Source: a virus
UHGV virus genome: UHGV-0100061
Strand: one strand, 5' to 3'
DNA length: 11,055 bases
Below, in pieces: positions 1 through 8,783 of the stretch (the stretch's first letter is position 1; each line of letters begins with the position of its first letter). The notes under the pieces are model-generated. The model worked only from the letters and a program-made list of their open reading frames with translations, was not told the origin of the DNA and did not search any database. The translations under genes and the position numbers were made by a program.

Positions 1-133
1 GTTCATCTATCGAATCGCCACACTCACAAGAATGAGTGGCAGATATAGCCTGGTGGTTCAGACGACGCATTTTTATTGCTGTATTGCGCTGTAATTCTTC
101 GATTTCTGATGCTGAATCAATGATGTCTGCCAT
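1..133 (-). CDS. DksA/TraR-family-like small protein, N-terminal 44 codons (ORF runs off the window start)
   Basis: Manual minus-strand translation from ATG at 133..131 gives MADIIDSASEIEELQRNTAIKMRRLNHQAISATHSCECGDSIDE. The CxCG-x2-I-x-E stretch resembles the first zinc-finger knuckle of TraR/DksA proteins. In-frame TAA lies 3 codons upstream of the ATG. SD is weak and too close (GGAAG adjacent to ATG). Family assignment is from memory. Confidence 0.4.
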   Translation of the reverse strand, partial: MADIIDSASEIEELQRNTAIKMRRLNHQAISATHSCECGDSIDE

Positions 134-182
134 CTTCCATTAATCTCTGAATTGTTGGTTAATACGCTTGAGGGTGAATGCG

Positions 183-209
183 AATAATAAAAAAGGAGCC
201 TGTAGCTCC
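183..209 (-). terminator. Rho-independent terminator downstream of the DGQHR gene
   Basis: Plus strand 195..209 is ggagc-ctgta-gctcc (5-bp GC-rich stem, 5-nt loop), preceded on the plus strand by an A-rich run (184..194). On the minus strand this reads hairpin followed by TTTTTTATTATT. Confidence 0.5.
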
Positions 210-286
210 ATGAAGATTTTGTTTTTCATGCTCACCGTTCCTTAAAGACGCCGTACAGCATGCTGATATGAGACAATGTTGATTCA

Positions 287-1351
287 TTAAGTTGATTCCA
301 GACTTCCTTTGGTAAAAGCTTGTATCAGTCTGTTTGCTGCTGCTTTCTGCGCTGCCACATTGGCAATAACAGATAGTTTTTCCTGGCTGGCTTTCGTGCA
401 GATCCCCGCCCAGTTATCCATCAGAAAAAAATCCTCTCTTTCTGCAGAGCTGGTAGTTGCACATAGTTTTTCGATCATAGAAGTTATTTCTGCGATGGAA
501 TGATTAACCATCATCTGTTGAACCGCAAAACCGAAAGCGTTAATCATTACTCCATGGAACTGAATATAATCGCGCTTGTACGTAGCGTGGTGTACACCAT
601 GTCGGATTGAGTCAATCTGAGTTAGTGTAATCCATGCCTCCCAGACAGATTCTATATATCCCATTTCAAGTTGTTGATTGCCGTTCCTGGCGAACTTTGA
701 CGTTGCATCAGTGAGTGCCTTGAAACTCACCCACATATTACTTTTTAATGGCACTACGTTGTGTTCAAAATCGGTTATATCGGCAAATACAGTATGTTGG
801 GTCAGGAAGGATATCATTCCCTGAGCAATATCATCCCGGCCGTTATACGCCATATTGATGGTCGCTGATGGCTTAGAAACGTTGTTATTTATGTCCGAAA
901 AGAACTGCTGCCGGGTTTTTAGCGGCAGATTCATTGTAAGCATCATGGGAACCATGAGCGTTGATGGGGAACTTCGGCAAAATATCTCAATGCCAGCTGC
1001 ACGATGTTGACCATCAAAAAGTTTTATTTCGGCGTCGAGGGGAATTCTGGCTATACCAACATTTGTGTTGCCAAACGGTACAAATTCTATATTCGAATCA
1101 CAGTTACCTACGAGAGGGGGAATGATAAAAGGCTCATTTCTTGAGTCTGCGTTAGTGAGATAATTTAAAAATTTTCGTACTCGATTTGGATTAATTTCTC
1201 GCTGAGAGCGTTCCAGTGTATGGCCGTAATTATCTGAAGCGAGGAAACGAGCCAGCGATCTTCCTGGTATGGTAAGGAAGAGTGTAACAGTACCACCCTG
1301 TACACCTTGCGATGCCGGAAATTCGAATGAATGATTACCAACCTGACTCAT
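287..1351 (-). CDS. DGQHR-domain protein, DndB-like (ParB/sulfiredoxin-like superfamily); stand-alone cargo gene
   Basis: 354-aa ORF. N-terminal FEFPASQGVQGGTVTLFLTIPGRSLARFL and downstream LERSQREINPNRV...KLFDGQHRAAGI match the hallmark DndB/DGQHR signature (FPA..G.QGG...Y, QR, DGQHR). Strong SD (AGGAGG, plus 1356..1361 complement) 4 nt before ATG at 1351..1349. Start overlaps the upstream ORF stop as ATGA. Confidence 0.85.
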   Translation of the reverse strand: MSQVGNHSFEFPASQGVQGGTVTLFLTIPGRSLARFLASDNYGHTLERSQREINPNRVRKFLNYLTNADSRNEPFIIPPLVGNCDSNIEFVPFGNTNVGIARIPLDAEIKLFDGQHRAAGIEIFCRSSPSTLMVPMMLTMNLPLKTRQQFFSDINNNVSKPSATINMAYNGRDDIAQGMISFLTQHTVFADITDFEHNVVPLKSNMWVSFKALTDATSKFARNGNQQLEMGYIESVWEAWITLTQIDSIRHGVHHATYKRDYIQFHGVMINAFGFAVQQMMVNHSIAEITSMIEKLCATTSSAEREDFFLMDNWAGICTKASQEKLSVIANVAAQKAAANRLIQAFTKGSLEST

Positions 1352-1506
1352 ATATCCTCCTGTTTATTATTTATCTTCTCAGCCAGCCCCTGTGCTTTCA
1401 GTGGATTTCTGATAACAGAAAGACCGGGAAATACCCAGCCTCGCTTTGTAATGGAGTAGACGAAAGTGATCGCGCCTACCCGGATATTATCGTGAGGATG
1501 CGTCAT
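1348..1506 (-). CDS. Small orf60a-like protein (52 aa), translationally coupled between exo and the DGQHR gene
   Basis: Manual translation: [55 protein letters not shown] 1506..1504 overlaps the exo stop (ATGA); stop 1350..1348 overlaps the DGQHR start (ATGA). N-terminal part resembles lambda orf60a as recalled. Absent from the supplied ORF track (below its length cutoff). Confidence 0.5.
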
Positions 1507-2183
1507 CGCCATTGCTCCCCAAATACAAAACCAATTTCAGCCAGTGCCTCGTCCATTTTTTCGATGAACTCCGGCACCATCTCGTCAAAACTCGCCATGT
1601 ACTTTTCATCCCGCTCAACCACGACATAATGCAGTCCTTCACGCTTCATACGCGGGTCATAGTTGGCAAAGTACCAGGCATCTTTTCGTGTCACCCACAT
1701 GCTGTACTGCACCTGGGCCATGTAAGCCGACTTTATGGCCTCGAAACCACCGAGCCGGAACTTCATGAAATCCCGGGAGGTAAACGGGCATTTCAGCTCA
1801 AGGCCATTGCCGTCACTGCATAAACCATCGGGAGAGCAGGCGGTGCGCATACTTTCGTCGCGATAGATGATCGGGGATTCGGTAACATTCACGCCGGAAG
1901 TGAATTCAAACAGAGTTCTGGCGTCGTTCTCGTACTGTTTTCCCCAGGCCAGCGCCTTAGCATTAACTTCCGGAGCCACACCGGTGCAAACCTCAGCCAG
2001 CAGGGTGTGGAAGTAGGACATTTTCATGTCAGGCCACTTCTTTCCTGAGCGGGGCTTTGCTATCACGTTGTGAACTTCTGAAGCGGTGATGACGCCGAGC
2101 CGTAATTTGTGCCATGTATCATCCCCCTGTTCGACAGCTCTCACGTCGATCCCGGTACGCTGCACGATAATGTCCGGTGTCAT
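1503..2183 (-). CDS. exo: Lambda-type exonuclease (Red alpha)
   Basis: 226-aa [25 protein letters not shown]...GFVFGEQWR, recognised as lambda Exo over its full length. Start overlaps the bet stop (ATGA at 2180..2183). Confidence 0.95.
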
Positions 2184-3485: not shown

Positions 3486-3618
3486 TTTTTGGGACTCCTG
3501 GCTGATTAAGTATGTCGATAAGGCGTTTCCATCCGTCACGTAATTTACGGGTGATTCGTTCAAGTAAAGATTCGGAAGGGCAGCCAGCAACAGGCCACCC
3601 TGCAATGGCATATTGCAT
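3454..3618 (-). CDS. cIII: cIII, inhibitor of FtsH-mediated cII degradation
   Basis: Manual translation from ATG 3618..3616: [54 protein letters not shown] (54 aa), stop at 3456..3454. SD AAGGAG upstream. In a different frame from the 96-aa track ORF 3321..3611. Confidence 0.85.
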   Translation of the reverse strand: MQYAIAGWPVAGCPSESLLERITRKLRDGWKRLIDILNQPGVPKNGSNTYGYPD

Positions 3619-3640
3619 GGTGTGCTCCTTATTTATACAT

Positions 3641-4319: not shown

Positions 4320-4901
4320 ATGAACAACTCATGGTGGCAGGAACTAATGCATTTTTTCCTGCAAGGAATGACACTTAAACAGTTGATTCATATGCTAATC
4401 ATCCTAATCATATTGATTATTGTTATGCCTGTAAGCGTAAAAGAATGGATAAACCTGCATAATCCAGAAATCCTTCCTCATTACTGGATGTATTACATCC
4501 TGTTGTTTTGCGTTAGCTATGTGCTTAACGGCGTTGTTAATTCCGCTTATCACGCTGTGACTGAAAGAATTGAGATATTCGCTGCTCAGAAGCGCAAATC
4601 TAAAGAAGAGAAATACGTGCAAGATTTGTTTGATTCGTTAACTCTTGGAGAAAGAGCGTATTTGGCATTCGCTGTAGCCGCTAATAACCAGCTAAAGACA
4701 GAAAAGGGAAGCCCTGAAGCAATCTCATTGCTCGAAAAAGGGCTTCTTATTCGGGTACCTTCTGCTACTGGATATCCTGAAATCGACCGTTTTGTTATCC
4801 CGGAACGCTATAGAAATGAGTGCTACATTAGGTTTGCTGGGAAGAAAGACAGTCTTATGGATGAACTTATCGCTCAGGATAAGCATGGCAAAAACAAGTA
4901 A
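4320..4901 (+). CDS. sieB: SieB superinfection exclusion protein
   Basis: 193-aa ORF MNNSWWQELMHFFLQGMTLKQLIHMLIILIILIIVMPVSVKEWINLH..., recognised as lambda SieB, with an N-terminal transmembrane segment. Plus strand, converging on N as in lambda. Confidence 0.9.
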   Translation: MNNSWWQELMHFFLQGMTLKQLIHMLIILIILIIVMPVSVKEWINLHNPEILPHYWMYYILLFCVSYVLNGVVNSAYHAVTERIEIFAAQKRKSKEEKYVQDLFDSLTLGERAYLAFAVAANNQLKTEKGSPEAISLLEKGLLIRVPSATGYPEIDRFVIPERYRNECYIRFAGKKDSLMDELIAQDKHGKNK

Positions 4902-4917
4902 TTAGCAAATTAATTTA

Positions 4918-5190
4918 TCATCTCGCCGTCAGTTGTTTTGATTTCCGGTAGCCTGCCGCGTAAATGGCTACGTTTGGCAGGCAAATACTTCCACTGCATT
5001 CATCTGCCTTCTTGCAGCGAAGGCTTCCGAGTGATGCTGCTTTGTCTGCTCTGACGCAACCAGAGAGCTTTAGCGCAATTTTTCGCGCCAGTCGCTGTTC
5101 TTGCATTGCCTGCTCACGTTGAGCCTGTCTGCGTGCTCTGCGGCGATTTCTGGCGTTATCGTCAGCCAGATATGTAATGACTACTGCCAT
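4918..5190 (-). CDS. N: N-like transcription antitermination protein (arginine-rich motif)
   Basis: 90-aa ORF with N-terminal arginine-rich motif DNARNRRRARRQAQREQ and C-terminal AIYAAGYRKSKQLTAR resembling P22 gp24/N family. GGAGG SD 5 nt upstream of ATG 5190..5188. First gene downstream of pL/nutL. Confidence 0.8.
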   Translation of the reverse strand: MAVVITYLADDNARNRRRARRQAQREQAMQEQRLARKIALKLSGCVRADKAASLGSLRCKKADECSGSICLPNVAIYAAGYRKSKQLTAR

Positions 5191-5297
5191 GTTGACCTCC
5201 GATGATTGACTTTGGCGGTGACGCGCCGGGTGCTTATCTTCCGGTTGCCGTCGTGCAGCTGCACTTCACGTCACCCCAAAGCCAACTACTCTTTGGT

Positions 5298-5338
5298 TCC
5301 CGCATTTCGGCGGGACAATCCCATCAATGTTAAAGAGC
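5298..5338 (-). promoter_or_regulatory. nutL (boxA plus boxB)
   Basis: Minus strand reads GCTCTTTAACA (boxA; plus 5328..5338), a 12-nt spacer, then TCCCGCCGAAATGCGGGA (boxB hairpin; plus 5298..5315). The same boxA core and an identical boxB occur at nutR. Confidence 0.7.
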
Positions 5339-5384
5339 CTGCCAATCTGTTCCGTTTGGCTACCAGCGTCCTGCCGATGACTTA

Positions 5385-5460
5385 AATTTAAGATTTCTTT
5401 AACTATTGGTCAAGAGCGTTTTTGAAGAAAACTTAAATTTTGTTGCGAAGCTTAAGTTTT
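5385..5460 (-). promoter_or_regulatory. pL promoter and OL operator cluster
   Basis: Minus strand: -35 TTGACC (plus 5408..5413), 17-bp spacer, -10 TAAATT (plus 5385..5390). An operator-like 18-mer at plus 5386..5403 (atttaagatttctttaac) closely matches the OR1-like site atttaagtgttctttaat. Further TTAAG-containing half-sites at 5430..5460. Confidence 0.5.
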
Positions 5461-8750: not shown

Positions 8751-8783
8751 AGGCCTGCTGGTAATCGCAGGCCTTTTTATTTG
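8751..8783 (+). terminator. Rho-independent terminator between ren and ninB (tR2-like)
   Basis: 8751..8774 aggcctgc-tggtaatc-gcaggcct (8-bp stem) followed by tttttattt. Confidence 0.6.

Follow-up and report, generated by a model that had tools for sequence, protein, structure and literature searches.

A predicted terminator of the lambda pL operon lies within a conserved small open reading frame and borders a variable gene slot that holds a DGQHR-domain gene

The pL operon of bacteriophage lambda reportedly contains a characterized Rho-independent terminator, tL3, and lambdoid phages are said to carry morons within their otherwise conserved gene order. In Escherichia coli, the leader ORF of the pyrBI leader/attenuator crosses an intrinsic terminator. 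The system closest to the one described here is a second terminator, t2, predicted between orf61 and orf73 of lambda and of phage Phi24B by Bloch et al. 2014 (PLoS One, PMC4195576, Table 4). In that paper t2 is a software prediction, and t1 corresponds to tL3 inside orf60a. The same study reported, by qRT-PCR in lambda, lower levels of orf73, ea22 and ea8.5 RNA than of orf60a, orf63 and orf61 RNA; in Phi24B, which has an identical t2 sequence, orf73 RNA was high and the lambda-like step-down was absent (PMC4195576). Orf73 has also been reported to be highly expressed after pL induction. Our search of the exo-xis literature, PMC4195576 included, found no mapped transcript 3′ end at t2; two other papers on this region name terminators in figure legends only. 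As for translation, a review (PMC8614690) lists, from ribosome profiling of lambda, a 31-aa product, "orf2313", and a 7-aa product, "orf2311", in the conserved region.

We analyzed an 11,055-nt stretch of the virus genome UHGV-0100061 (hereafter, the window), which spans a lambdoid prophage's early region (Table 1). The pL-like promoter has a cI-type S24 repressor on its right, and the rightward operon opens with a P22-type cro. As a preliminary description of this DNA had proposed, the pL operon appears to be N-antiterminated, since the N gene, a pL-like promoter and a nutL-like boxA and boxB are all present. The homolog of tL3 has one G-C pair weakened to G.U relative to lambda (energies −16.6 here, −17.6 in lambda); the same terminator is annotated in phage O276 (NC_049951). 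The window edge cuts the gene that follows the hairpin studied here; a full-length copy of this TraR-like gene, in locus L005, is matched by the Pfam family zf-dskA_traR.

Table 1. Coordinates of the features in and around the pL operon of the window
Feature	Coordinates	Strand	Basis or remark
TraR/DksA-like gene, 5′ part (lambda orf73 homolog)	1..133	−	cut by window edge
7-codon ORF MEDGRHH	117..140	−	overlaps small-ORF stop (TAATG) and orf73 start
Small ORF, product MSMKNKIFMELQAPFLLFAFTLKRINQQFRD	140..235	−	31 codons from GTG 235; 29 from ATG 229, AAGGAA ahead
U-rich tail UUUUUUAUUAUU (U6AUUAUU)	183..194	−	codons (CC)U-UUU-UUA-UUA-UU(C), Pro-Phe-Leu-Leu-Phe, of small ORF
Stem-loop GGAGCU-ACA-GGCUCC	195..209	−	sequence, fold; same as predicted t2 of lambda/Phi24B
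orf61 remnant, last 11 codons of full-length orf61 + stop (ISMLYGVFKER*)	232..267	−	lambda homology begins here
Replaced segment, 1081 bp, no lambda homology	268..1348	−	blastn; GC 0.43, GC3 0.39
DGQHR-domain (DndB-like) gene, 354 aa	287..1351	−	PF14072 3.8e-46; TIGR03187 1.5e-55
orf60a-like DUF1317 gene	1348..1512	−	stop overlaps DGQHR start (ATGA)
Lambda tL3 homolog	1410..1442 (about 1442-1420)	−	inside orf60a, upstream of DGQHR
exo	1503-2183	−	minus-strand order after N: ea10-like DUF2528 gene, cIII, kil, gam, bet, exo
sieB	4320-4901	+	between DUF2528 gene and N
N antiterminator gene	4918-5190	−	PF25694
nutL-like site		−	boxA-like GCTCTTTAAC, then boxB-like hairpin
pL-like promoter	5413-5385	−	

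The hairpin and T-run that the preliminary description had placed at 183-209 of the minus strand are present at exactly those coordinates, with terminator anatomy and in the right orientation. Read 5′ to 3′, minus strand 209-183 consists of GGAGCU ACA GGCUCC followed by UUUUUUAUUAUU, in which the arms 209-204 and 200-195 pair across a loop of three nucleotides (203-201). The six pairs comprise five Watson-Crick pairs, four of them G-C, and a closing U.G pair. A G+C-rich stem-loop is therefore joined directly to a U-run on the strand transcribed from pL. On the plus strand the T-run does not adjoin the stem, so the element would work in one direction only. With short flanks, the hairpin has a local energy of −8.6 kcal/mol, compared to −10.2 kcal/mol for its lambda counterpart, which is one pair longer; the stem is preceded by U here and by G in lambda, and one G.U-closed extension is lost. 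The distances first given, about 80 bp past the DGQHR stop and ahead of the TraR-like ORF, also held: 77 nt separate the DGQHR stop codon (289-287), measured from its last base, from the start of the hairpin, and a further 49 nt lie between the end of the U-rich tail and the TraR-like ATG (133-131). A 151-nt stretch around the hairpin folded no more stably than its shuffles (z = −0.17) and contained no larger structure; this context being structurally ordinary, the local hairpin alone counts. Rfam at gathering thresholds matched no family at the hairpin, its sole match in the window being Lambda_thermo at 3573-3631.

The hairpin and U-run are no chance match. A lenient terminator scan of the window was only weakly enriched, with 18 sites against 11.1 ± 3.7 in shuffled sequences. 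Under a strict definition (at least six pairs, at least four G-C pairs and at least six T in eight positions), by which the site at 195 qualifies, the window contains 6 sites compared to 0.34 ± 0.53 in 100 dinucleotide shuffles. These sites lie at 195, 1431, 3651, 4095 and 5487 on the minus strand and at 8772 on the plus strand, and all six are oriented in the direction of their operon.

Comparison with lambda by blastn revealed that window positions 1-267 correspond to lambda 30481-30747 (93% identity) and positions 1349-1600 to lambda 31194-31445 (95% identity). The hairpin sits 58 nt within the first of these blocks, and together with its T6 it is 100% identical to lambda 30663-30690, the stem-loop itself being lambda 30675-30689. 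It matches the published entry for t2, GGAGCT ACA GGCTCC TTTTTTATTATT, in stem, loop and U-run (PMC4195576, Table 4), and occupies the same strand and the same position before orf73; the setting differs in that the upstream gene is DGQHR here and orf61 in lambda and Phi24B. Judged by its sequence, the hairpin is thus the already described, predicted t2, an ordinary feature of the lambda backbone. The same paper places a BPROM-predicted promoter, p1, over the hairpin; its −35 element is TCATCA there and TCTTCA in the window, and p1 was not recovered by our minus-strand sigma-70 scan of the window.

Between the two blocks of lambda homology lies the DGQHR gene, which lambda lacks in the same blastn comparison. 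The protein belongs to the DGQHR family above the curated cut-offs, scoring 158 bits against PF14072 (cut-off 29.1) and 188.8 bits against TIGR03187 (cut-off 58.85). Assignment to DndB proper, the DNA phosphorothioation regulator, was rejected: the TIGR03233 equivalog model gave 106.9 bits against a cut-off of 328, and the neighboring genes are orf60a and orf73 rather than dnd genes. The GC3 of the gene, 0.39, is unlike that of exo (0.62) and bet (0.59), a foreign composition that indicates acquisition. The preliminary description had also set a cassette boundary beside the hairpin, and indeed lambda homology ends at 267 and resumes at 1349. The replaced segment is approximately the DGQHR ORF only and stands for lambda 30748-31193, which holds orf61, orf63 and the 3′ end of orf60a. 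Specifically, the DGQHR ATG coincides exactly in position with that of lambda orf63 and overlaps the orf60a stop by ATGA (1351-1348), too tightly for a promoter to fit between.

A promoter serving the DGQHR gene had been proposed within 1352-1520, but that interval is orf60a coding sequence together with tL3, and a sigma-70 scan of 1340-1700 yielded no convincing candidate. The scan returned two 8-of-12 matches with extreme spacers (15 or 19 nt), and lambda shares the −10 element of one of the two. DGQHR homologs (62 to 65% identity), in the early operons of Salmonella phage SPN1S and Klebsiella phage ST101-KPC2phi6.3, overlap the next gene and so have no terminator behind them. Taken by its sequence context, the DGQHR gene is a swap for orf63 and orf61 without a promoter or terminator of its own. 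Similar to a moron, it is an extra gene of foreign composition that stands in an otherwise conserved operon and is followed by a terminator-like site. Composition unlike that of its neighbors is the moron trait that it has; in contrast to morons, it lacks its own promoter, the terminator belongs to the backbone rather than having been co-acquired, and two genes were replaced at a start codon where a moron would be inserted between genes adjacent in relatives.

The hairpin itself is found whatever gene stands upstream, which excludes its restriction to DGQHR loci. Among 80 IMG/VR viral loci retrieved for the nearest relatives of orf73, the exact 21-nt motif GGAGCTACAGGCTCCTTTTTT was present in all 80, preceded by orf60a-orf63-orf61 in 66 and by DGQHR in 6; in 8 of the 80 there was no orf63 match between orf60a and orf61. 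These loci are nearly identical in sequence, with an invariant hairpin, and so say nothing about covariation. Among 5426 complete E. coli genomes, a 107-nt segment around the hairpin occurs in 3036 and the DGQHR arrangement in 283. Its location in lambda-homologous DNA and its occurrence without DGQHR mean that the hairpin did not arrive together with the DGQHR gene.

Across different phages, at least 15 unrelated gene families stand at this point of the operon, directly upstream of a small ORF described below. They include C5 and Dam DNA methylases, an HNH/NUMOD4 endonuclease, a PAPS-reductase-domain protein, NinX, DUF551, DGQHR and orf63/orf61, and most of these genes overlap the start of the small ORF by 4 nt. 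By this comparison, the DGQHR gene is an occupant of a variable cargo slot with conserved DNA on both sides, and the clean boundaries of the slot would result from homologous recombination in the conserved flanks.

An intrinsic terminator is expected after, and not inside, a translated gene, and here 209-183 falls within a conserved ORF of 29 to 31 codons. The site is no empty intergenic gap; the preliminary description overlooked the 31-codon minus-strand ORF (235-140) that crosses it. Lambda carries the same small ORF, with the product MNMKSKIIRELQAPFLLFAFTLKRINQQFRD. The hairpin begins 17 nt past the ATG of the ORF, and the stop codon lies about 45 nt beyond the U-run. The TGA of the orf61 remnant overlaps the GTG of the small ORF; with respect to DGQHR, the small ORF is uncoupled in the window, a 51-nt gap separating the two. 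By its length and position, the small ORF is probably the lambda "orf2313" named in PMC8614690, an ORF that is reported to be translated after induction, and MEDGRHH may be "orf2311" of the same review. The same peptide is encoded directly before the TraR-like gene in Citrobacter, Pseudocitrobacter and many IMG/VR contigs. In distant lineages it takes the form MK..ITR[E/S]L.[A/R]PFLLLAFTFNRINRQFREH, and in two of the sequence types defined below, D and E, it forms the C-terminus of a longer Orf61-like protein. The position of the hairpin inside a conserved micro-ORF next to a TraR-like gene has not been described in the literature searched.

For a wider comparison, we scanned genomes. The hits were mostly lambda DNA in assemblies of unrelated taxa, with only loci L122-L130 being informative, and distant relatives were gathered by a second query with the Citrobacter-type and Pseudocitrobacter-type proteins. 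Of the 55 unique sequences obtained, from four lineages, 51 have a hairpin (−5 to −12 kcal/mol) and a U-run at the same codons; because the lineages are related, such counts are not counts of independent events. Several stem sequences are represented. Lambda and the window share GGAGCU-aca-GGCUCC, encoding ELQAP over the stem; type B has GGAGCU-uaa-GGCUCC (ELKAP), type C has GGUCGC-uauc-GCGGCC with the register shifted by one column (SLSRP), and type D has GGGAC-ucggu-GUCCC (GLGVP). The residues over the stem thus vary (ELQA, SLSR, GLGV), and the peptide downstream is conserved. Between the lambda type and the Citrobacter type or type D, two stem pairs are changed on both sides (one from A-U to G-C, the other from G-C to A-U). 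The score for covariation was 0.277 compared to 0.148 ± 0.036 in shuffles and exceeded all 500 of them, a measure that reflects few independent events and is inflated by kinship. As type C pairs one column off, the types have no single consensus structure and a formal count of covarying pairs is weak. Three loci of type E (L123, L130 and L217) keep the peptide and have neither hairpin nor U-run.

Codon choice adds to this picture. In the U-run of types A to C, Phe is without exception encoded by UUU and the first Leu by UUA, which makes up 10% of Leu codons in the genes of the window; Leu is encoded by the rare UUA or UUG throughout the run, and the other codons vary synonymously. When the peptide was recoded with random synonymous codons, a motif equalling the observed one arose in 0.3 to 3.6% of trials under strict criteria, across three stem types, and 4 to 25% of recodings were still terminator-like under lenient criteria, indicating that the peptide itself predisposes to the motif. 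Locus L150, in which the ORF is frameshifted, has kept the hairpin. The element is above chance expectation against shuffles, and its structure is kept in 51 of 55 relatives through changed stems that include the two pairs altered on both sides. Together, the varied stems, the changed pairs, the fixed U-run codons and the rarity of the motif among recodings favor selection on the RNA element itself, beyond coding constraint.

The reading that we consider probable is that the hairpin is a Rho-independent terminator of the conserved backbone, that it borders the variable cargo slot and that N-modified polymerase reads through it. The DGQHR ORF would have been exchanged for orf63 and orf61 by recombination between a flank formed by orf60a and tL3 and a flank formed by the small ORF, the hairpin and orf73. 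The slot would then be bracketed by two pre-existing terminators, and the DGQHR gene would use the translation start of orf63 and rely on transcription from pL. Polymerase without N modification, whether it had escaped tL1-tL3 or had started inside the slot, would be halted by the hairpin and its U-run without reaching orf73, ea22, xis and int. N-modified polymerase from pL/nutL would pass, and this readthrough agrees with the strong expression of Orf73 reported after pL induction. Similar to tL3, which N overrides, the hairpin is a terminator-like element of the backbone in the same operon and on the same strand. The two differ in that tL3 precedes the slot, inside orf60a, whereas the hairpin, with its shorter stem, follows it. 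Given that the hairpin starts so close behind the ATG of an ORF that is usually coupled to the gene upstream, a ribosome following closely would be expected to lower termination. We infer that termination takes place here in vivo and that both N and ribosomes modulate it.

Several observations count against a terminator. The stem is short (6 pairs) and weaker here than in lambda. The hairpin lies inside a reportedly translated ORF, and translation should hinder its formation. The reportedly strong expression of Orf73 after pL induction and the high orf73 RNA of Phi24B point the same way, as do the type E loci that are without the hairpin and the 4 to 25% of lenient recodings that remain terminator-like.

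A different and rather unlikely reading makes the small ORF and its embedded terminator a translation-gated attenuator that regulates the TraR-like gene in the manner of pyrBI. A coupled ribosome close behind the polymerase would mask the 5′ arm of the stem, so that transcription would continue into orf73; where translation lagged, the hairpin would form and the polymerase would stop. The comparison with pyrBI is apt in that here, too, a small ORF spans a hairpin and U-run just before the next gene. The placement of the hairpin relative to the start and stop of the ORF suits this reading, as does the conservation of the small ORF with its Shine-Dalgarno sequence and start in several lineages, with the 4-nt upstream overlap in most loci. 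The small ORF, hairpin and TraR-like gene stay together as a module while the gene upstream varies across its 15 or more families, and a 31-aa ORF of the region is reported as translated in lambda (PMC8614690). Set against this, the stem is preceded by 20 A-rich nt with no U-rich pause tract of the pyrBI type, no nucleotide-sensing logic is evident in the window, and N antitermination should override the terminator during normal lytic expression. In types D and E, moreover, the peptide is the end of a longer protein, type E has no hairpin, and the small ORF is not coupled to DGQHR in the window.

A broader form of the gating idea, which we regard as similarly doubtful, is that a three-piece module (micro-ORF, embedded terminator and TraR-like gene) marks the constant downstream edge of a hypervariable slot, whose genes of the DNA-modification and anti-defense type are the C5 and Dam methylases, the HNH endonuclease, the PAPS-reductase-domain protein and DGQHR, and that ribosomes coupled to the cargo gate the polymerase. 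As far as comparison of the loci reaches, the evidence shows the module itself and selection on its predicted RNA structure.

It is improbable that the hairpin and T-run are a coding by-product, namely the codons of a conserved peptide, E-L-x-A-P-F-L-L-F, with no role in transcription. The motif does lie wholly within the conserved ORF, its T-run encodes Pro-Phe-Leu-Leu, lenient recoding restores something like a terminator in 4 to 25% of cases, and the type E peptide occurs without the motif. However, pairing is kept through three stem sequences although the residues encoded there vary; UUA or UUG for Leu and UUU for Phe are fixed in the U-run in the face of synonymous variation elsewhere; strict recoding seldom recreates the motif for any stem type; and the hairpin of L150 has outlasted the reading frame.

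We think it very improbable that the hairpin acts in RNA processing or stability, protecting a 3′ end or being cut by a nuclease so that cargo RNA and orf73-ea22 RNA would have differing half-lives. Conservation of the structure across lineages would fit such a role, and the step-down of lambda RNA across the site (PMC4195576) is compatible with termination and with decay alike. The conserved U-run after the stem, by contrast, is a hallmark of termination that a stability hairpin would not need, and 6 bp is short for an RNase III site.

Least credible is the proposal of the preliminary description, a self-contained moron of promoter, DGQHR gene and terminator acquired as a unit, for despite the atypical composition of the DGQHR gene, its absence from lambda and the terminator-like site behind it, this reading is refuted by the homology boundaries: the hairpin is identical in the lambda flank and far more widespread than DGQHR, the non-homologous segment is just an ORF that starts within an orf60a overlap with no promoter found, and homologs in other phages have no terminator.

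As a gene with no promoter or terminator of its own within lambda's exo-xis region, the DGQHR gene would be expected to be expressed with the early pL transcript and not as a lysogen-expressed moron, and this corrected setting changes which of its functions should be tested. Our analyses add modestly to what has been described for t2: the predicted terminator appears to be under RNA-level selection across distant lambdoid lineages, and it lies inside a conserved micro-ORF beside the TraR-like gene, where a slot in which DNA-modification genes gather comes to an end. These findings bear on research into the exo-xis region. If gating were true, expression of a factor that reprograms host RNA polymerase would be tied to translation of a slot for genes of the DNA-modification or anti-defense type.

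Lambda orf61 contains the run GAAATC-A7-GCCAGAC, and the same A7 is present in 13 lambda-identical contigs. In 76 natural relatives the site instead reads A6, and the Orf61 protein of these relatives is longer, with 107 aa when counted from the first ATG or 71 aa according to the PGAP annotation. The long form ends in ...GMLNGVFKER*, and its TGA stop codon overlaps the GTG start codon of the small ORF. From this sequence comparison, the orf61 of reference lambda looks like the product of a frameshift truncation. At the other end of the small ORF, its stop codon contains the start of a 7-codon ORF (TAATG) encoding MEDGRHH, which itself overlaps the start codon of the TraR-like gene. This ORF has a conserved lambda counterpart that reads MKDGRHH, and it may correspond to the 7-aa "orf2311" from ribosome profiling, as far as the citation of that ORF in PMC8614690 indicates. 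In one IMG/VR phage (L150, about 1448-1500) the U-run is T7 vs T6, which shifts the small ORF out of frame and leaves the hairpin intact.

Matches to orf73 with 94-96% identity were also found in contigs of many species-representative assemblies from unrelated taxa (L086-L121, L126-L128 and L131-L132), including Shewanella, Bradyrhizobium, Paenibacillus, Streptomyces, Prevotella and others. Some of these contigs are ~48.4 kb in size. They look like spike-in or contaminating phage lambda DNA rather than real prophages.

Elsewhere in the window, the stem of the tL3 homologue carries a G-C to G.U change relative to lambda, with a folding energy of -16.6 kcal/mol vs -17.6 kcal/mol. Four additional strong terminator-like sites, each co-oriented with its own operon, probably correspond to the tL2 cluster of lambda, the post-cI terminator and a terminator after the ren-like gene. 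The exo-xis region of the window is lambda-like, yet the nutL of the window is not of the lambda type, as judged from the boxA-like and boxB-like elements located 5' of the 90-aa N protein. The sole Rfam family matched in the window was Lambda_thermo, the cIII thermoregulator (88.5 bits).

Positions of features in the window and in comparison sequences
Feature	Position	Strand	Sequence or remark
7-codon ORF	117-140	-	MEDGRHH
orf61 region	232-267; locus L001 3340-3525 and 3213-3395 (lambda 30712-31024)		A7/A6 comparison
tL3 homologue	1410-1442	-	
Lambda_thermo	3573-3631	-	
Terminator-like sites	3651, 4095, 5487	-	
Terminator-like site	8772	+	
pL-like promoter	within 5297-5413	-	TTGACC-17-TAAATT
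boxA-like element	within 5297-5413	-	GCTCTTTAAC
boxB-like hairpin	within 5297-5413	-	UCCCGC-cgaaau-GCGGGA

The DGQHR gene occupies a hypervariable slot directly upstream of the small ORF (comparison loci L122, L130, L149, L150, L197, L217, L278 and others). In other phages the slot is taken by genes for C5 DNA methylases, a Dam methylase, an HNH/NUMOD4 endonuclease, a PAPS-reductase-domain protein, NinX or DUF551, or by unknown genes. The majority of these share 4 nt with the start of the small ORF. Salmonella phage SPN1S (L003 2573-4158) has a DGQHR homologue of 65% identity, flanked on one side by a DUF1317 (orf60a-like) gene and on the other by a DNA methyltransferase gene that overlaps the stop codon of the homologue. 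This arrangement hints that DGQHR acts together with DNA modification.
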